The translations under genes were made by a program, and so were the position numbers. DNA of 64,000 bases from a virus (lineage: Duplodnaviria; Caudoviricetes). Position 1 is the first letter of the stretch, and every line of letters starts with the position of its first letter. Below the pieces are notes generated by a model. It worked only from the letters and a program-made list of their open reading frames with translations. It was not told where the DNA came from and did no database searches. The DNA is taken from the IMG/VR virus record IMGVR_UViG_3300028591_000085, positions 64,001-128,000 of that record. One strand, given 5' to 3'. Of the stretch, positions 11,478 to 63,293 are shown in pieces.

Positions 11478-12461
11478 ATGTCAAAGAAAAACAAGAATAA
11501 GAAGTCCGAGGTAAAATCTGAGATAAGAATCCCGGAGGACGTGAGAAAGTTTTCTTCGATGACTTTGAAAAAGTTTAAGAAGAAAAATGGTGATCTGTAC
11601 GATGGTAAGAAAGAGCTTCGTAAAGGCTTCTATCAGGAGCTTACAGATTACATGGGTGGAACTATAGAGTTCCTGGTGAAGTTCGGGTATATTAGAAAGC
11701 CCGAGGTAATAGAAACAAAGAACGGCTGTTTGGAAAAGTTCTATGACGAAGACTTTGTTAAGTATCTTATCAAAGAAATTAAAAAGAACGATGATTCGGC
11801 GATAGAGAACATCAAGCTACTGCCGATAGTTCTTAAGGATGTTTTAGCTGAGATACTCTCGGTTAATACGAAGAGACTCGCCGAAGATCCGAATGCAGCT
11901 CAGATGTCGACTGCAGAACTTTGCGACCTGATCAAGGTTATCACGAAGTCGAAGTTCAAAACGTTGACAAAGGCTGGGATTGATGAAGGTCTTGCGTTTG
12001 ATATCGTTATGATAGTTCCGTGTAATAAAGCATGGAAATACTCAAGGACCTTCAGAATAAAATCGTTGGTAAATGTGTTGTATGAACATGCAAAGACTAA
12101 GAAGATTGCATTTGCTGATATAATACAGCATACACTGAAAGAAGAAGATATACCGTATGTAATCACATATTGTTTATCTGAAAAGAAAGAACGGTTTGGG
12201 AATCTTTCCGATTCCCAGAAAGAGTTTTATATGTCAATTACGACATGGTGCTTTGATACCATGGAGAAAATGAATAAGAATGACATAGAAACTATAATTG
12301 ACGGGTTCATTAAGATTCGTCGTAATGATGAAAGTAGGGGTCTTGACGGTAACAGACGTTATGCGCTGTCAGGATTATCTGAAATTGATTATCCGAAGAT
12401 TTCGAAAGTCATAGGTTCGATGCTTTCGGATAATGAAAGTATTCGTAAGTATTTGAATTAA
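11478..12461 (+). CDS. Hypothetical protein (start re-called to ATG 11478)
   Basis: AAGGAGG RBS directly before MSKKNKNKK. Confidence 0.75.
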   Translation: MSKKNKNKKSEVKSEIRIPEDVRKFSSMTLKKFKKKNGDLYDGKKELRKGFYQELTDYMGGTIEFLVKFGYIRKPEVIETKNGCLEKFYDEDFVKYLIKEIKKNDDSAIENIKLLPIVLKDVLAEILSVNTKRLAEDPNAAQMSTAELCDLIKVITKSKFKTLTKAGIDEGLAFDIVMIVPCNKAWKYSRTFRIKSLVNVLYEHAKTKKIAFADIIQHTLKEEDIPYVITYCLSEKKERFGNLSDSQKEFYMSITTWCFDTMEKMNKNDIETIIDGFIKIRRNDESRGLDGNRRYALSGLSEIDYPKISKVIGSMLSDNESIRKYLN

Positions 12462-12495
12462 CGAATTAAAAAAAAATAGTCAATAAACTTATTAT

Positions 12496-12550
12496 TAATC
12501 CCGCAAATGGTGTATATACATTTGCGGGATTAGTGATAATTATTTTTTTC
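12496..12550 (+). terminator. Hairpin / probable terminator
   Basis: TAATCCCGCAAATG...CATTTGCGGGATTA. Confidence 0.55.
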
Positions 12551-12581
12551 ATTATTAATTAAAGAAAGAAGGATAACTACT

Positions 12582-13646
12582 ATGATATGCAGATTTAACA
12601 TTGGTTCGTTTGAGGCTGACAAGTCTAACGATCTTATTATAACCTATGACCAGTATGGTAACAAGTATTTCTCTTTTGAAGATATTGAGCAAAAGATTAA
12701 TATTCGTGCTAATACTAAAGCATTTCGTAACATTGAAACTAGTGACATCACTTGCGCTGCTATGAGCGAGGATGTTGTTATTGAGAAGAATGAAAAGAAT
12801 ATTCCTTATTCTTGGAAGAAATATCAACTTCCTAAGGATCTGGACAAGAAGTATCGGTGGGCTAACAATATAAAGAACCTCAATCCGATGTTTCTTATTA
12901 ATAACTATACTAAATCTGAGGATGGTACTGAAGAGTATTCTCCTGAAAACTATGTTGTGTACATAGCTATAGAATCGCCCAGATATAAGATTCTTGGGTA
13001 CTATACTAAGTATGCAATTCTGAATACATTTACTCACAATGATAAATTCACTGGCGCAACTATTGTATTCACTGAAGATGAACATCTTGCCGCTGATGAT
13101 GATAAAATTATTGAGATTAAGTTTTTTGATAATGTCACCAAGGTATATAGAGTTTGCACTATATCTATTGATGGTAATGGTAATCCTGAAATGGATATGA
13201 GATATGCAGAAGGACCCGAAGTTGGTAAGCTTAAGACTCTGAATAATCGTTACAAGTTCTCTCTTAAGATGAGAATTAGACCTTTAGCAGGTTCTCTTAT
13301 TACTCAGCATTATATATTCCCTGTAACTAACAGTGAATATGAAGCAGGTTCTGATGACCCTGAGAAGTATATTGCTAATAGTGAAGTTGAAAAGTTGGTT
13401 TCTGATCACTTTAACAATAACTTCCCTGAAGGCACCGAATACTACATGTCACCTATTCATATTGATGAAAACGGTGAGCCTAATGTTGAAGAACTGGAGG
13501 CAGCTATTGGTGATATTGTTAACTTCAAGTCTAAGGTATTTACAACATTCGGTGTTAAGATTCCTTATGATCTTATTAAGAAGTATAAGATTAAGAATGT
13601 TTTTAACTATGATCTTGAGACAAATAAGATCACACTTGTTAAGTAA
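12582..13646 (+). CDS. Hypothetical protein
   Basis: 354 aa ORF with RBS. Confidence 0.75.
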   Translation: MICRFNIGSFEADKSNDLIITYDQYGNKYFSFEDIEQKINIRANTKAFRNIETSDITCAAMSEDVVIEKNEKNIPYSWKKYQLPKDLDKKYRWANNIKNLNPMFLINNYTKSEDGTEEYSPENYVVYIAIESPRYKILGYYTKYAILNTFTHNDKFTGATIVFTEDEHLAADDDKIIEIKFFDNVTKVYRVCTISIDGNGNPEMDMRYAEGPEVGKLKTLNNRYKFSLKMRIRPLAGSLITQHYIFPVTNSEYEAGSDDPEKYIANSEVEKLVSDHFNNNFPEGTEYYMSPIHIDENGEPNVEELEAAIGDIVNFKSKVFTTFGVKIPYDLIKKYKIKNVFNYDLETNKITLVK

Positions 13647-13738
13647 AAAACATTTTAGTACTTTATTTATATATCATAAATGTATAAGTCACTAATAATA
13701 TAGTGATTTGTTAAAAATTTAAAAAGGAGATTTTTACC

Positions 13739-14215
13739 ATGAAAAAAATCACAGCAATTTCGAAGACAACTGCTGCCTTGAAAAAGGGTAAAACCTTAAA
13801 GGCAAAGAAGAAGAAGGAAACCGTGGTTCTTAGGGCGGAGTGTCCTCATCATTATTATGATGGGAAGAAGTTGAAGAGCCGAATTAAGAACAATGGCGAT
13901 GGAACCTGCACCTGCAAGTTGTGTAAGGAGCAGTTTAGGACAATTCCATTCACGTTCGATGAGATTGATGAGGCCTATGAGAACGTTAAGGAAATAACTA
14001 ATCAGGCTAAATTCATGGCTGCTCGTCTTGGTATAGCCAACAACTGCGACTACTTATGCAGTGTATCGGGTAATCTCACAAAGTGGCCGAAGGTTGTTGG
14101 TAAAACCATCAAGGCTGCCAAGAAAGAAGACGGCGTGAAAAAGAAGAAGAAGGGCGGTTCTAATTCTGGTATGTCTAACCAGTATGGACAGTGGAGTATT
14201 GGTAGACATCGTTGA
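13739..14215 (+). CDS. Basic Zn-finger-like protein
   Basis: CPHH...CTCKLC, Lys-rich termini; ATATATCAT motif at 13669-13677. Confidence 0.6.
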   Translation: MKKITAISKTTAALKKGKTLKAKKKKETVVLRAECPHHYYDGKKLKSRIKNNGDGTCTCKLCKEQFRTIPFTFDEIDEAYENVKEITNQAKFMAARLGIANNCDYLCSVSGNLTKWPKVVGKTIKAAKKEDGVKKKKKGGSNSGMSNQYGQWSIGRHR

Positions 14216-14248
14216 TGTTCCGAATCTAATCGCTTCTTCAAATGAAAT

Positions 14249-14288
14249 AAAATACCTAAGGGAATGAGATTCCCTTAGGTATTTTTTT
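14249..14288. terminator. Intrinsic terminator
   Basis: AAAATACCTAAGGGAAT-GAG-ATTCCCTTAGGTATTTTTTT. Confidence 0.85.
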
Positions 14289-14343
14289 ATTGCATATTTT
14301 CTATGTTCCTATAATGGTAGGAATAGGATAATATTTTAATAAA

Positions 14344-14356
14344 AACATTAAAATAA
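14344..14356 (+). promoter_or_regulatory. AACA-N6-TAA promoter
   Basis: AACA-TTAAAA-TAA upstream of gyrB. Confidence 0.55.
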
Positions 14357-14408
14357 GCATATTAATAATAATAAATATGCTTATTAAAAAGAAAGGTTGT
14401 GAATAAAA

Positions 14409-19357: not shown

Positions 19358-19687
19358 TTAGTAACTTCTCTCTAAACTGAACACCTCCTTGTAATCGAAA
19401 TTTACGTTAAATGCCTTTAAACACGCCCTTAATTCAAAGAGCATATAGCTTAACGCTACCAGCCCATACCCAGAGGGTGGATTATTAGATAACAGCCAAT
19501 TTTTTACATCGGCTGCTATCGTTGTCACTGCTATGAGATCCGCCGTCGATTTGGCGAACGTTCCTCCTTCGTATGCTGCTTTATCTCCGTATGCGTTATC
19601 GCATGCGGTATCTACAGCTTTATCTATAGCACATACGAGTTCATCGATAGTATCAGATGTAAGATCCATGATTATTGAGTATTTCAT
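19358..19687 (-). CDS. Small accessory hypothetical protein
   Basis: 109 aa, AGGAGG RBS, own promoter and structured leader. Confidence 0.75.
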   Translation of the reverse strand: MKYSIIMDLTSDTIDELVCAIDKAVDTACDNAYGDKAAYEGGTFAKSTADLIAVTTIAADVKNWLLSNNPPSGYGLVALSYMLFELRACLKAFNVNFDYKEVFSLERSY

Positions 19688-19706
19688 ACTATTACCTCCT
19701 AGGTAA

Positions 19707-19766
19707 TTTACTTTATTTTTATTGACTAGGGATAATAAAGCCTGGTGACATCCAGTGAAAAACCCT
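19707..19766 (-). ncRNA. Structured leader motif 2 (pseudoknot), copy D
   Basis: AGGG-TTTTTCA-CTGG(ATGTCA)CCAG-G-CTTTATT-AT-CCCT-AGTCAATAAA-AATAAAG; covaries with 63039-63100. Confidence 0.7.
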
Positions 19767-19838
19767 ATAATAATTAACGGTTTGAATACTAATAGTTATT
19801 TTAAACCGACACGCCAGTGTGGTATAACTATTCATATT

Positions 19839-19918
19839 CACAGAGATAGTATATCATTGAAATAATAGACTTTACGGATAAAAGTAGAAGCAAAACAAAT
19901 AATTAAGTTAATAAATTA
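19839..19918. repeat. ~80-bp direct repeat 1: back-to-back early (-) and late (+) promoters
   Basis: Near-identical to 21782-21861; CGTA-N18-ATATACTAT on - and AACA-AATAAT-TAA (19894) on +. Confidence 0.8.
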
Positions 19919-31944: not shown

Positions 31945-34068
31945 TTGAAAGGACGAATTGCCCGTATCAATAATCATTTAATTGATTTAGGGACTTACAA
32001 TAAATCATTTCTACAAGTTGCTCAAGACCTAAAAACATTAGGTTTAAAAAATTGGTATTTTATGTTAGAAATATATGATTATAGCTTGGTTAACATTGAT
32101 CCGTATGCACTAGATTCTAATGGACATGCGTCATTATCTCAAGATCAGGTTACTAGAATAATGACTGAATGTATGAGAAATCCGTGGTATTATTTGCGAG
32201 AACTTTGCAGAATTCCTGATCCTGGTGGAACTGCTGTACCGTATATTGCAAATCGTGGGAATATTGCTCAAGCTTGGTGTATTTTTCATGGTTTAGATTC
32301 GTGGTTATGTCTACCGCGTCAGCAAGGAAAGACTCAATCAGCAATTGCAGCTCAAGCATGGATGTATTCATTCGGTACAAGCCAATCACAATTTATATTT
32401 ATAAATAAAAGTGGTGACGACTCTAAAACTAATCTTCGTAGACTTAGGGAACAAATCAAATTCTTACCAGAATATTTAAGATTTGAATCATTTGTAGATG
32501 AAGATGGTAAAGTTACTAAAGCTACACAAAACGCAACTTTAATTCGTCATCCAGTTAATGGAAATTCTATAATAACCCGTTCTAAAGCTACATCTTATGA
32601 TATGGCGTTATCATTAGCTCGTGGTCTTACAGCACCCATTCAGCATTTTGATGAAGCTGAATTTACCAATTTTATTAAAACGATAGTTTCTAACTCAGTA
32701 TCAACATATGAAACTGCTGCATCTAGAGCTAAAGCTAATGGTGCTATGTACGGTCGAATCTTTACATGTACTCCCGGAGATCTTGATTCAAAGCCTGGAC
32801 AAGAAGCACAAGAAATTTTAGATAAAACTGCTAAGTGGACTGAAAAACTTTACGATATGACTCAAGAAGAAATACAAATGTATTTAAATTCTCAGGGTAA
32901 AGATTGTAATAAAATATTATATATAGAGTACAGCTATAGTCAAATAGGTAAGACAGAAGCTTGGCTTAGAGATATATCTGCTAAAATAGGTGATACATTA
33001 GTAGTAAGACGTGAGATTTTATTACAGAGATTACACGGTTCTTCTCTTTCTCCGTTTGATCAAGAGGATATTGAATACATTGTAGAAATAGGTAAGAAAC
33101 CCATTGACGAATTATGGATAATGGAATATTATAAATTTGACGTTTATAAGAAATTAAACCCTAGAACCCCATACATAATAGGGGTTGACTGTTCAACAGG
33201 TACTAATGGAGATAATAATGCAATTACAATATTAAATCCATATACATTAGAACCTGATGCAGAATTTGAATGTTCATATATAGGAGAAACACTGTTTGAA
33301 AGATTATTAACAATGCTTGTTACAGAAATTCTTCCCAGAGGAGTATTATGTATAGAGCGTAATAGTGTTGGTGATAGTATCATCGATCATTTAATGAATG
33401 GACCTGCAAGAGATAGATTGTATTTCGATAAAGCAAAAGATTTAGTAGAAAATAATTCTACTGCTATGGGTACGATTGAATCTGTATTAAAACGACAAGC
33501 TAGTATAAAATCGTACTATGGAGTTTATACTAGCCCTAAATCTCGTGATGATATGGTTGCAATTCTTGCAAGACATGTTAATGAATATAAAGATAAATTT
33601 GTAACTAAGAATATTATACGTGATTTATCTCGTTTAGTAAGAACTTCTTCTGGTAAAATTGAAGCAGGCCCTGGTTTCCATGACGATAGTATAATGTCAT
33701 ATTTGATAGCATTGTATGTTTATTATCATGGTAATAATCTCGCAGTATTTGGCATTATAAAAGGTATACAGGAAGATACTGAAAAAAATAAAGGATTAAA
33801 ACGTGCTGATGAAATAGACCCAACTTTAGTCAGTCCTGATTTAATCGCTGCTGTAAAGAATCAAGAGATGCTAGAAGCTCAACAAAATGAATGGGCTAAC
33901 CTTATGAGAAAAGCAACAATTCAAGCACAGAAGGATACTTATAGACTTCAAAAAGCGGGTGAAGTGCAAAACACTATATTTGAACATACACCTGGTGCCG
34001 TAATAGAAGATATAGAAGATGACGGTCATGTGGATTTATCTATTTTTAATAATCTTAACGGATTTTGA
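31945..34068 (+). CDS. terL: Terminase large subunit
   Basis: Walker A PRQQGKT, Walker B QHFDEAEF, motif III TCTP, nuclease GVDCSTG and HDDSIMS. Confidence 0.92.
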   Translation: MKGRIARINNHLIDLGTYNKSFLQVAQDLKTLGLKNWYFMLEIYDYSLVNIDPYALDSNGHASLSQDQVTRIMTECMRNPWYYLRELCRIPDPGGTAVPYIANRGNIAQAWCIFHGLDSWLCLPRQQGKTQSAIAAQAWMYSFGTSQSQFIFINKSGDDSKTNLRRLREQIKFLPEYLRFESFVDEDGKVTKATQNATLIRHPVNGNSIITRSKATSYDMALSLARGLTAPIQHFDEAEFTNFIKTIVSNSVSTYETAASRAKANGAMYGRIFTCTPGDLDSKPGQEAQEILDKTAKWTEKLYDMTQEEIQMYLNSQGKDCNKILYIEYSYSQIGKTEAWLRDISAKIGDTLVVRREILLQRLHGSSLSPFDQEDIEYIVEIGKKPIDELWIMEYYKFDVYKKLNPRTPYIIGVDCSTGTNGDNNAITILNPYTLEPDAEFECSYIGETLFERLLTMLVTEILPRGVLCIERNSVGDSIIDHLMNGPARDRLYFDKAKDLVENNSTAMGTIESVLKRQASIKSYYGVYTSPKSRDDMVAILARHVNEYKDKFVTKNIIRDLSRLVRTSSGKIEAGPGFHDDSIMSYLIALYVYYHGNNLAVFGIIKGIQEDTEKNKGLKRADEIDPTLVSPDLIAAVKNQEMLEAQQNEWANLMRKATIQAQKDTYRLQKAGEVQNTIFEHTPGAVIEDIEDDGHVDLSIFNNLNGF

Positions 34069-61231: not shown

Positions 61232-62092
61232 ATGTCTCAGATTAAATATTTAGATACTGCTGGAACTCAAACTCTTATTAATGAAATTAAGTCGAGATTA
61301 AGTACTAAGATTACTAGATATGCTACAATGCCGTCTGCTACTGTAAACGATGTTGGTGATATCGTACAGTATATTGGTACTACCAATTCTAATTTTACTA
61401 AAGGTGATTTTTATCTCGGTTCTACCGGAGCGTCTGTTGAAGTATCTACATATGTAGCTTCTTCTAATGGAATAACCGGTGCTCTTGAAGTTGTTGCAGC
61501 TGATGCTGATCCCTTTGACGAGGAAACTCAGATTAAAGTTGATACTGCTAAGCTCGTATCAGATCTTCCCGAGGTTCAGGTTGGAGACTATGTTAAACTT
61601 ACAACTACAACAGTACCTACATATAATTGGGTACAAGTATCTTACAGCAAGGATGAGATTAATGAACTTATTGGTAGAGCTGGTCACTTCGCCGCAGTTA
61701 ATAGCTTGCCTACTACCGATATTGCTACTAACATTATCTATCTCGTACCTAAGAAAAAAACAGTTTCGGGTTATACTGCGACTGACGGATCTTTTTATGT
61801 TCCTAGTGGCAATACTTATATCCATTATGATGCTACGGGTGCTGTTATTACAGGTACAGTAGATGATGAAGCAGTAGCTGCTGCTATTGAAGATGAGACC
61901 TATACTGCAGGTACTAAAGAAGTCCTTAATCCTCAGGATAATAATACTAAAGACGAATATATTAATATTGATGGTACTGTCAATGGTTGGGAAAAAATTG
62001 GCGAAACATTGATGGATCTTTCTAACTATGTTCAATTTGATGATTTAGTTGCAATTACATCAAATGAACTTGATGCTATGTGGGATGTATAA
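61232..62092 (+). CDS. Fibre/decoration protein carrying one copy of the sheath repeat module
   Basis: KYLDTAG, GDIVQYIG, LPT..IIYLVP..WEKIG; GALEVVA..DLPEVQVGDYV. Confidence 0.65.
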   Translation: MSQIKYLDTAGTQTLINEIKSRLSTKITRYATMPSATVNDVGDIVQYIGTTNSNFTKGDFYLGSTGASVEVSTYVASSNGITGALEVVAADADPFDEETQIKVDTAKLVSDLPEVQVGDYVKLTTTTVPTYNWVQVSYSKDEINELIGRAGHFAAVNSLPTTDIATNIIYLVPKKKTVSGYTATDGSFYVPSGNTYIHYDATGAVITGTVDDEAVAAAIEDETYTAGTKEVLNPQDNNTKDEYINIDGTVNGWEKIGETLMDLSNYVQFDDLVAITSNELDAMWDV

Positions 62093-62144
62093 AAAAAATC
62101 GACCCGTAGCATAAACACAGTAATACGAGCCGATTTCATTTTAA

Positions 62145-62192
62145 ATAAGACAGTGTGAAGCATCTAGCTTCACACTGTCTTATTATTTTTTT
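62145..62192. terminator. Bidirectional terminator
   Basis: ATAAGACAGTGTGAAGC-ATCTA-GCTTCACACTGTCTTAT. Confidence 0.85.
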
Positions 62193-62218: not shown

Positions 62219-63016
62219 TCAGAATATCTTTTTGACTACTCTCTCCACCCAGCTTCTAAAGATTCTGTCGTCCTTATTCGGGTTAAACCCGTCTCCTATA
62301 CTGAAGGAGACTTCTACTGTCTCCCAGTATACCCTCAGACGGGTTACTAAATTCAGGAGCGTTTCGCTCCCGACTGCACCAATAAGGTGCAGTAGGAGAT
62401 GCTCCTGAGTATTTTTTCCGAGAGCAGGGTTCAAAACCGCTCTCGAAATTTTTGTACTGCCCCAAGAATTTGCCTGTACTGGGGATGAGTCATCCCCAAA
62501 AATTTTAACTATAGTCCCCCTCTGAGAGAGGACTAAATACCAAGACCGCTGCTGACCCCAGCGGTTCTCTCCCTTAGCCTCAATTATGAGGCTAGGGTCA
62601 TCACCCTCAGCTTCGGAGATGTCCCTGAAACTGAGGGTGATTTTGCTACCCTCTTTTTCATGAAGACAACTGAGTGGGCTTCTCAGTGTCTCGAAACCTT
62701 CTTCATGCCCCTTGGGGGCAAAGAGGGTTTCTGTTACGGAGGTGATGTAATTCATCACCTCCTCTAATGTTTCGGTGTCCTGGATGACGTGCTTCATCCA
62801 GGACGTTCCTGCGAATTTCTGGTATTTTGCAGGGTTATTAAGCCTCTGCAAAATACCAGAAGCTTCTGTTATCTTCTTCGTAAGCTGGTCGAGGGCAACC
62901 AGCTTACACTCAAACTCGATATCCTCAGATTTGCTACTGAGGTTACGAGTGGTTTCGACGATCTCGTCGTTGTTGTTAGCAGCGGTGGTGGTAGCGTTGG
63001 TATTAATGTTTTTCAT
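62219..63016 (-). CDS. GC-richer accessory hypothetical protein
   Basis: 265 aa, AAGGAGG RBS, own promoter and two structured leader motifs. Confidence 0.75.
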   Translation of the reverse strand: MKNINTNATTTAANNNDEIVETTRNLSSKSEDIEFECKLVALDQLTKKITEASGILQRLNNPAKYQKFAGTSWMKHVIQDTETLEEVMNYITSVTETLFAPKGHEEGFETLRSPLSCLHEKEGSKITLSFRDISEAEGDDPSLIIEAKGENRWGQQRSWYLVLSQRGTIVKIFGDDSSPVQANSWGSTKISRAVLNPALGKNTQEHLLLHLIGAVGSETLLNLVTRLRVYWETVEVSFSIGDGFNPNKDDRIFRSWVERVVKKIF

Positions 63017-63038
63017 AATCTTTAGCCCCTCCTTGGGC

Positions 63039-63100
63039 TTTACTTTGTTTTGTTGACAAGGGATAACAAAGACCTACCGAATTGCAGGTGAAAAACCCTT
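63039..63100 (-). ncRNA. Structured leader motif 2 (pseudoknot), copy E
   Basis: AAGGG-TTTTTCA-CCTGC(AATTCG)GTAGG-T-CTTTGTT-AT-CCCTT-GTCAACAA-AACAAAG. Confidence 0.7.
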
Positions 63101-63111
63101 TTAAATAAATT

Positions 63112-63210
63112 ATGTATATAATAAGTTCAGTACAGCGACGCCCTGTTTTTCCTCTTTTAGGAACATATAAATTATTCAGGTTGCTGTAATGAATATTATT
63201 CATATACACA
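63112..63210 (-). ncRNA. Divergent copy of leader motif 1
   Basis: TACAGC-AACCTG...TTCCT(AAAAG)AGGAA-AAA-CAGG-GCG-TC-GCTGTA. Confidence 0.5.
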
Positions 63211-63213
63211 TAA

Positions 63214-63293
63214 ATAATGTATATATTAAAAAAACCGAAATACGGATAAAAAAAGATTTTACGGTTTTTATACTAATTTAAACATTATATTAA
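63214..63293. promoter_or_regulatory. Back-to-back early (-) and late (+) promoters
   Basis: CGTA-N18-ATACATTAT on - (63214-63244); AACA-TTATAT-TAA on + (63281). Confidence 0.65.

Follow-up and report, generated by a model that had tools for sequence, protein, structure and literature searches.

A predicted triple-helix pseudoknot in the 5' leaders of accessory genes in a ruminant-gut jumbo phage

Introduction

Natural RNA triple helices that show clear three-way covariation are, to our knowledge, few: they comprise those of telomerase RNA, the SAM-II and preQ1-II riboswitches, ENEs and group II introns. The telomerase RNA pseudoknot of vertebrates, ciliates and yeast is of the H type, with a U-rich loop 1 (L1) that makes U.A-U triples in the major groove of stem 2 (P2) and an A-rich loop 3 (L3) that lies in the minor groove of stem 1 (P1). 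Here we analyse an element with the same predicted topology that occurs twice in a 64,000-nucleotide stretch of phage DNA (bases 64001-128000 of the 203-kb IMG/VR virus record IMGVR_UViG_3300028591_000085; hereafter the window), each time in the leader of a minus-strand open reading frame (ORF). The element has no sequence relation to telomerase RNA, which works within a ribonucleoprotein enzyme rather than as a phage mRNA leader, and it adds covarying C+.G-C layers, a hairpin inserted at the far end of P2 and an invariant GUCA.

Several riboswitches also resemble the element. SAM-II (RF00521) and SAM-V (RF01826) are H-type pseudoknots that precede the start codon and have an L1 triplex in the P2 major groove. 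Their Shine-Dalgarno sequence (SD) is in P2 and their ligand sits inside the triplex, whereas the phage element has its SD in a separate hairpin and its triplex is continuous. PreQ1-I (RF00522) shares with the element a small H-type knot just before the ribosome-binding site (RBS), a P1 ending in G-C, an L1 starting UU(C) and an A-rich L3 tail. In preQ1-I, P2 is 3-4 bp long and L1 2-3 nt, as against 7 bp and 6 nt plus a hairpin here, and the ligand pairs with a conserved cytidine in the loop that precedes the P1 3' strand.

Other relevant systems act through protection or through proteins. The ENE triple helices of KSHV PAN RNA and MALAT1 contain stacked U.A-U and C+.G-C major-groove triples with adjacent A-minor contacts, and the ENE protects RNA from exonucleolytic decay; it acts in eukaryotic nuclei, where it holds an A-rich 3' tail and so blocks 3'-to-5' decay, whereas the phage element is a self-contained 5' leader pseudoknot. 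Phage T4 uses translational operators with gp32 (a leader pseudoknot), RegA and gp43. The pseudoknot of the gene 32 leader (mentioned in PMC10690425) is likewise of the H type, lies in a phage 5' leader upstream of the RBS and mediates translational control by a phage protein; unlike the element described here, to which it has no sequence relation, it serves a single gene by autoregulation, and no extended major-groove triplex has been reported for it. Finally, exoribonuclease-resistant RNAs (xrRNAs) of the flavivirus type, which we propose as a functional analogue, are compact knotted viral RNAs that stop 5'-to-3' exonucleases including RNase J1 in vitro (PMC5760640), with a ring around the 5' end rather than a triplex H-type knot.

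Results

Crossing helices are maintained by compensatory changes

The two copies in the window share the order AGGG, UUUUUC(A), a hairpin, CUUURUU, AU, CCCU, (A/U)GUCAAYAA(A), AAYAAAG and UAAA, followed by a hairpin that overlaps AGGAGG and then by ATG (Table 1). The initial annotation had placed them at 19707-19766 and in the region 63039-63100, both on the minus strand and ahead of unrelated genes, and the sequence confirmed this; its count of two holds for the window, and the whole genome contains four. AGGG and CCCU make up P1, CUUURUU and AAYAAAG make up P2, and the two helices cross. P1 can be extended to 5 bp in both copies by an outer pair that is itself compensatory (UAGGG/CCCUA versus AAGGG/CCCUU).

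To follow the element beyond this genome we fetched related phage records through their major head protein (62-86% identity), read four of them in full, and searched sequence collections as described below, which brought the number of distinct core sequences to 32. Pairs were counted on MAFFT alignments that had not been fitted to any structure. The four inner P1 pairs and the seven P2 pairs were 100% paired (P2 over 27 sequences), and 96% of all P1 and P2 cells were paired, compared to 82% after column shuffling and 48-59% when the partner strand was slid by 1-3 columns. Both sides had changed in 8 of 12 pairs of the two helices taken together, and 4 of the 7 P2 pairs covary. In P1 the pair types found were AU/GC, UA/GC/AU and GC/AU, giving AGGG/CCCU, GUGG/CCAC, AUGG/CCAU, AGAG/CUCU, ACGG/CCGU, GAGG/CCUC, AAGG/CCUU and GGGG/CCCU; a fifth, outer pair is present in about half of the sequences. 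The 5' strand of P2 reads CUUUAUU, CUUUGUU, CUCUGUU, UUCUGUU, UUUUGUU, UUUCGUU or UUUCAUU, each with a matching partner. Note that the sequences were selected by requiring P1 and P2 to pair; the signal was not made by that selection, because matches to a pattern free of any pairing requirement fall into two separate groups (see below).

The inserted hairpin, a region left unconstrained in the search pattern, was paired in 91.7% of cells versus 43.5% in shuffles; all 5 of its pairs had changed on both sides, and most positions showed four pair types. Thus the crossing of P1 and P2, the covariation of P2 and the pairing of the inserted hairpin in spite of sequence change, each proposed from the two window copies, recur across the 32 versions from related phages and ruminant metagenomes.

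G.U pairs in P1, P2 and the inserted hairpin are confined to the sense strand, which fits RNA structure and does not fit duplex DNA. That the motif works as DNA (as a protein-binding site or as a promoter for the opposite strand), or is a coincidence, therefore seems to us scarcely credible, although the complement of L3 (TTGACA or TTGACT) resembles a -35 element and the motif often lies in divergent intergenic regions. An opposite-strand promoter built on TTGACA was considered and rejected, since no -10 box was found at 16-18 nt on that strand of copies 1 and 2. Moreover, all 32 versions are sense to the gene and directly upstream of an SD and start codon, at a fixed distance from the SD; tandem copies run in the same direction in a relative; shuffled sequence gave zero matches to a structure-only descriptor; and the element occurs within contigs from an RNA library.

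Outside the helices, GUCA in L3 is invariant in the 32 sequences. Conservation extends to the two G-C pairs of P1 at the junction, to both leading U of L1 and to the end of P2 that faces the junction; a second (N)GUCAA occurs in the loop of the inserted hairpin in about half of the variants. The GUCA may form a sharp turn after P1 or may be a recognition site.

A parallel covariation between loop 1 and stem 2

L1 is the mirror image of the 5' strand of P2. Antiparallel Watson-Crick pairing of L1 was tried and does not fit across the variants. In the parallel register, by contrast, L1 UUUUUC is found with the P2 3' strand A-Y-AAAG, UUUCUC with A-C-AGAG and UUCUUU with A-C-GAAA, so that each A of the purine strand faces a U of L1 and each G faces a C, which is the rule of Hoogsteen U.A-U and C+.G-C triples. 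In particular, L1 columns 8, 9 and 11 covary with columns 58, 59 and 61 of the P2 3' strand, and the combination was U.A or C.G in 108 of 108 cells, compared to a fit of 38-62% in slid registers. The second layer always has U over a C-G (rarely U-A) inversion, and U is the best natural choice over such an inversion in triplex chemistry. Moreover, the geometry is the right one, because L1 of an H-type knot runs parallel to the P2 3' strand in the major groove of stem 2.

At the level of sequence, then, both marks of an H-type pseudoknot with a major-groove triple helix are present, namely the crossing helices and an L1 that covaries in parallel, the latter being the signature of such a triple helix; the initial annotation had suggested a triplex of the U-rich loop with the A-rich strand, and the three-way covariation supports that suggestion. 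The three L1/P2 classes need at least three separate triple substitutions, a modest count, although each is demanding. In the divergent copy 4, insertions are found in L1 and in the purine strand alike.

We conclude, with a probability of roughly 0.9, that the motif is a cis-acting 5'-leader RNA element of phage mRNAs that folds as an H-type pseudoknot with an L1 triple helix. In the proposed structure P1 (4-5 bp, with two conserved G-C pairs at the junction) would stack on P2 (7 bp), and L1 would lie in the P2 major groove as the third strand of a six-layer triple helix made of U.A-U, C+.G-C and one U.C-G step. The small hairpin would be inserted where L1 turns back into P2, and L3, GUCA first, would return along the minor groove of P1, its A-rich end probably lying against the conserved G-C pairs. 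The energies of nested folds were not significantly better than those of shuffles (z of -0.7 to -1.9); these scores are uninformative here, since the method cannot score pseudoknots or triplexes.

Copy 4, a covariance-model match, has L1 = UUUGUUUC and a P2 3' strand of AACCACAAAG, both with extra bases relative to copy 2, whereas its P2 5' strand gained one base only. An SD hairpin and a 136-aa ORF still follow downstream, and this copy may be a variant triplex or one in decay.

The element is confined to one phage clade

A descriptor that required pairing found 18 sites, of which 3 are in this genome, 10 in a complete 250-kb relative and 2 and 3 in two fragments; about 0.7 matches were found in shuffled sequence. 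A structure-only descriptor (4 bp in P1, 7 bp in P2 and at least 5 of 6 Hoogsteen matches, with neither GUCA nor an SD required) recovered the same 18 sites in about 1 Mb of sequence from this phage and its relatives and had no matches in shuffles; no copy linked to a tRNA was among them.

We then used a degenerate IUPAC pattern, which made no demand on pairing, to scan IMG/VR, JGI/ENA metagenomes and one genome per GTDB species. The 76 unique matches in these three collections split into 29 true matches, with P1 4/4, P2 7/7 and an SD no more than 45 nt away, and 47 scattered matches at chance level, of which 4 had an SD. All 29 true matches obeyed the triplex rule and 2 of the 47 others did, although the pattern had left those positions free. 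Across the three collections the true matches belong to this phage clade and to ruminant-type metagenome contigs, with none in unrelated viruses; all 24 matches in GTDB prokaryote genomes failed the pairing test, and no prophage or bacterial copy was found there. Scans of IMG/VR with exact patterns taken from the window's own sequence gave chance matches only, because relatives differ in the helices, and the degenerate pattern was needed. Similarly, blastn of both loci against the GenBank phage collection gave no match, and no convincing covariance-model match was seen in a distant relative (G004, 254 kb, complete) or in the partial loci L130-L133.

Rfam 15 at gathering thresholds gave no match over the window, and when copies 1 and 2 and five further variants were scanned permissively, a weak PreQ1 hit on copy 2 was the only one to overlap the motif. 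Models of self-cleaving ribozymes (pistol, hatchet, twister-sister and hammerhead) had no match in the window, in copies 1 and 2 or in the five other variants. No account of such an element turned up in full-text literature searches; it might be among the 8,495 candidate structured RNAs catalogued from IMG/VR (PMC10690425). The motif is a genuine RNA family that is missing from Rfam and restricted to one clade.

These searches bear on whether the pseudoknot is a riboswitch, in which the triplex would bind a small molecule in the manner of SAM-II, SAM-V or preQ1 and so control translation, one of the options raised in the initial annotation. The general topology is that of SAM-II, SAM-V, preQ1-I and preQ1-II, and the P1/P2 junction and L3 are conserved. 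However, no Rfam riboswitch family reached threshold on any variant scanned. SAM-II, SAM-V, preQ1-II (RF01054) and preQ1-III (RF02680) gave no cmscan match at E<=10 for copies 1 and 2 or at E<=1 for the five other variants. The PreQ1 hit on copy 2 (RF00522) scored 11.1 bits (E=6), where the gathering score is 39, and took a different P1, and copy 1, the window and the five other variants had no match to that family. Moreover, loop 2 (L2), the site of the ligand-pairing cytidine in preQ1-I, is AU, UA or AC across the 32 sequences, and the triplex runs on without a break that could take a ligand. Unlike its counterpart in preQ1-I, SAM-II and SAM-V, the P2 3' strand (AAYNRAR) does not contain the SD; the SD stands in a separate hairpin 9-14 nt further on, no conserved alternative pairing joins it to the knot, and there is no expression platform. 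Finally, up to 10 copies per genome stand before unrelated ORFans. The riboswitch option is therefore weakened, and we regard it as very improbable; nuclease blocking and translational control, the other options of that annotation, are taken up below.

The Shine-Dalgarno sequence is presented in a cassette-specific hairpin

A hairpin that presents the SD was found in 37 of 38 leaders, with very different stems. The annotation's hairpin overlapping the SD is kept by compensatory changes, as in copy 3, where AUACCU/AGGUAU replaces the stem of copy 1. When the span that begins 14 nt upstream of the SD and ends at the start codon was folded, the mean was -5.3 kcal/mol for motif-linked genes compared to -1.2 for 173 other genes with a strong SD in the same genomes (p=2e-8), and 94% versus 9% of the two sets reached -4 kcal/mol or better. 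The SD hairpin is specific to these cassettes and is part of the module. It starts two to five bases after the knot, with the SD in its loop and 3' arm, and in all copies 9-14 nt separate the end of the knot from the SD and 22-30 nt separate it from the start codon.

Several of these hairpins (for example GAUUAC-AAGGAG-GUAAUC in the region L174:8044-8030) have a short stem, flanked by UAC and GUA, whose loop contains GGA, which recalls the consensus for CsrA binding, RUACARGGAUGU. A second GGA site was not conserved among the SD hairpins.

This spacing raises the question of whether the knot enhances translation by docking. Folded leader elements such as those of rpsO and thrS dock on the platform of the 30S subunit at about this position; the knot could likewise sit on the platform upstream of the SD/anti-SD helix and hold the ribosome while the SD hairpin opens, raising initiation, and the SD is indeed shown largely in the hairpin loop. 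Against this, the knot has no sequence complementarity to rRNA, and contact would be only by shape or through GUCA, because the triplex and the helices covary freely. We consider such docking quite unlikely.

The knot is one module of a repeated expression cassette

A box, TATACTATCTnnGTG, is found repeatedly in the genome, ahead of about a dozen small cassettes, and also ahead of the copies in relatives; from its layout we infer that it is a promoter. The leaders that follow such boxes contain the knot, another hairpin motif, both or neither; the knot, found behind 4 of the roughly dozen boxes in the genome, comes 12-15 nt after the box or behind another covarying hairpin. The cargo proteins (n=37) fall into 26 unrelated clusters, almost all of them without a Pfam match. 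Taken as a whole, the promoter, optional upstream hairpin, knot, SD hairpin and single small ORF make up an expression cassette that is repeated and shuffled and that serves unrelated accessory genes.

In G002 (IMGVR_UViG_3300032038_000001), the complete relative of 250 kb, cassettes run in tandem in groups of three at 131691-133646 and 12457-14400 (-), about 0.7-1.2 kb apart, and every cassette there has a promoter box, an upstream hairpin, a knot and an SD hairpin to itself. Five of this phage's cargo proteins are one paralogous family.

A possible constitutive shield, or an operator

We favour, tentatively and at somewhat short of an even chance, the view that the knot folds constitutively in the leader and serves to shield and insulate its mRNA. 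By analogy with known protective RNAs, it would leave almost no single-stranded leader for endonucleases, would stall 5'-to-3' exonucleolytic decay of the RNase J type ahead of the RBS, and would insulate the RBS hairpin from upstream sequence, so that each cargo gene would get the same stable, preset level of expression. A fixed structural role is favoured because no part of the leader is left unfolded, helix sequences may change provided that pairing is kept, and the module is portable. The shield is favoured over a riboswitch because the SD lies outside the knot with no alternative pairing to link them, L2 varies, the triplex has no gap, and many copies stand before unrelated ORFans. A compact knotted viral RNA halts bacterial RNase J1 as a purely mechanical block (PMC5760640).

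Several points weigh against a shield. In many cassettes the knot is not 5'-terminal, as it lies 60-110 nt past the predicted start and behind another hairpin. It is dispensable for expression in general, since most of the boxes carry no knot. A purely mechanical role leaves the invariant GUCA, and its duplicate in the hairpin loop, unexplained. An SD hairpin of about -5 kcal/mol would reduce translation, not increase it. Moreover, the presence of RNase J in the host is assumed.

The main rival, which we hold to be possible but rather unlikely, is a translational operator, in which a trans-acting phage or host protein would bind the knot and SD hairpin and, at some set stage of infection, would turn the translation of a whole set of accessory genes off or on. 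The single-stranded, invariant GUCA of L3 and the second (N)GUCAA resemble a recognition sequence, the SD hairpin is cassette-specific, the element is common to many unrelated genes as in a regulon, and its presence in only some of the cassettes with the same box suggests gene-specific control. In our ranking, an operator would explain the GUCA, its loop duplicate and the cassette-specific SD hairpin better than a shield would. However, we identified no candidate binding protein, and no systematic search for one was made; variants C and D have no GUCAA in the hairpin loop; the spacing from knot to SD varies; and the GUCA may be structural, a U-turn-like reversal of the chain after P1.

If the knot is a shield, it might also be the prokaryotic-virus counterpart of ENE and xrRNA shields, by which accessory mRNAs would survive host RNases or RNA-targeting defences; this analogy is a speculative one that we would not bet on. 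It would then be the first description of a natural triplex "armour" on bacterial mRNAs and would offer engineers a small, portable stabiliser, perhaps a 5' insulator or stabiliser for Gram-positive hosts, and the C+.G-C layers could make its stability pH-dependent. At about 60 nt, self-contained, variable within simple rules and fixed in its place in phage mRNAs, the knot is an easy object for structural work and is suited to testing roles in bacterial gene expression such as mRNA protection, ribosome docking and protein-mediated control. The cassettes also show that this group of giant phages assembles accessory genes from interchangeable promoter, leader and RBS modules, which matters for the reading of many ORFan genes in jumbo phages.

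Two other roles were considered and rejected. The inserted hairpin, with the U-rich P2 strand, is not an intrinsic terminator, as its stems are only 4-6 bp and RNA contigs read through it. Nor is the element a substrate of tRNA-guanine transglycosylase, for which loops such as AUGUCAA, similar to the anticodon loop of tRNA-Asp, had made it a candidate: the base before GUC varies (U, A or C) and many loops lack the motif.

Genomic context, transcription and source of the window

Table 1. Positions of the element's parts and of associated features. Positions without a prefix are those of the window.
Feature	Position	Strand	Sequence or remark
Copy 1	19766..19707	-	AGGG-UUUUUC-A-[CUGG AUGUCA CCAG]-G-CUUUAUU-AU-CCCU-AGUCAAUAAA-AAUAAAG-UAAA
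Copy 1, P1 5' strand	19763..19767	-	UAGGG; partner 19727-19731
Copy 1, L1	19757..19762	-	UUUUUC; proposed Hoogsteen third strand, parallel to P2 3' strand A(U)AAAG
Copy 1, inserted hairpin	19742..19755	-	CUGG-AUGUCA-CCAG; at far end of P2
Copy 1, P2 5' strand	19734..19740	-	CUUUAUU
Copy 1, L2 and P1 3' strand	19727..19733	-	AU and CCCUA
Copy 1, L3	19718..19726	-	GUCAAUAAA; invariant GUCA and A-rich tail
Copy 1, P2 3' strand	19711..19717	-	AAUAAAG; purine-rich, centre of proposed triplex
Copy 1, SD-presenting hairpin	19691..19707	-	AUUACCU-AGG-AGGUAAU; ATG at 19687-19685
Copy 1, cargo	19358..19687	-	109-aa ORF; no Pfam or PHROG match
Copy 1, promoter-like box	19841..19877	-	CCGTAAA, 17 nt, TATACT, ATCTCTG; read from sequence
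Copy 2	63099..63039	-	layout as copy 1
Copy 2, P1 5' strand	63096..63100	-	AAGGG; partner 63058-63062
Copy 2, L1	63090..63095	-	UUUUUC; proposed third strand of triplex
Copy 2, inserted hairpin	63072..63089	-	ACCUGC-AAUUCG-GUAGGU; one G.U pair
Copy 2, P2 5' strand	63065..63071	-	CUUUGUU
Copy 2, L2 and P1 3' strand	63058..63064	-	AU and CCCUU
Copy 2, L3	63050..63057	-	GUCAACAA
Copy 2, P2 3' strand	63043..63049	-	AACAAAG
Copy 2, SD-presenting hairpin	63024..63039	-	AGCCC-AAGGAG-GGGCU; ATG at 63016-63014
Copy 2, cargo	62219..63016	-	265-aa ORF (P0001); no Pfam or PHROG match
Copy 2, promoter-like box	63195..63223	-	TATACA ... AATAAT
Copy 3	G000:173980	+	upstream of 87-aa ORF
Copy 4, divergent	G000:174534-174593 (= L270:1501-1560)	+	covariance-model match; upstream of 136-aa ORF
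Promoter-like boxes	G000 42581, 85796, 136248, 157528, 171232, 173895, 174421, 181067, 182691		CCGTAAA-N17-TATACT-ATCTnnGTG(A/T)A

The cargo ORFs of copies 1 and 2 sit on the minus strand between core genes of the plus strand, and a search of IMG/VR found no close relative of the 265-aa protein. Sheep metatranscriptome contigs cover 62248-62918 and 62897-63186, the second of which spans the copy 2 leader into the gene and ends at 63186, no more than 25 nt from the predicted start, whereas the DNA run continues further. These contigs, from one sample, are a weak hint that the copy 2 leader is transcribed. (Note that parts of the stretch without RNA contigs were not taken as silent, nor were expression levels ranked by contig depth.) Between the convergent genes 61232-62092 (+) and 63016-62219 (-), at 62144-62184, is a perfect 18-bp palindromic hairpin with T-runs, probably a bidirectional terminator that closes the copy 2 cassette.

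The window comes from a ruminant-gut jumbo phage with a genome of about 31% G+C. Its genes include those for a major head protein, terminase, gyrase and anaerobic ribonucleotide reductase, and the window locus was recovered from sheep, bovine and goat gut runs. The closest cultured relatives of the terminase (window 31945-34068) are those of Bacillus phages vB_BpuM-BpSp and Goe21 and of the Staphylococcus jumbo phages S6, PALS_2 and MarsHill, at about 32-33% identity, followed by those of phiKZ-like phages; the phage may thus belong to the jumbo-phage group that encodes its own multisubunit RNA polymerases. A search of GTDB genomes with the gyrase A gene for host inference gave no match. The host is probably of the Bacillota type, given the strong AGGAGG sites, the base composition and the terminase, about 33% identical to those of Bacillus and Staphylococcus jumbo phages.

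Between the box and the knot, copies 1 and 3 have an upstream hairpin (window 19780-19835 (-) and L003:1430-1490 (+)) that reads ACCACAC-UGGC-GUGUCGGU in one and ACCAACC-UGGC-GGUUCGGU in the other, with two compensatory swaps and a bulged C in both. The corresponding hairpin of copy 2 is ACAG-GGCGUCG-CUGU at 63112-63150, and these hairpins seem to be a second leader module that carries the motif GGCGU(C). In many cassettes (for example in the relatives L174, L179, L197 and L270:1480-1500) a conserved linker, UUAUUACAUAA, joins the upstream hairpin to the knot and may mark a processing site or belong to a second promoter.

Copies 1 and 3 have about 125 nt of upstream sequence in common and are therefore one duplicated promoter-plus-leader, whereas copy 2 shares just the motif of about 60 nt with them. 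Contigs from DNA runs break at the motif (window 63013-63116), as expected of a dispersed repeat. A near-identical metagenome copy of the copy 3 cassette (L198:600-700 (-)) has a chimeric SD hairpin, with its 5' arm from copy 3 and its 3' arm from copy 1 and hence a weaker stem, which suggests recombination between dispersed copies of the leader.

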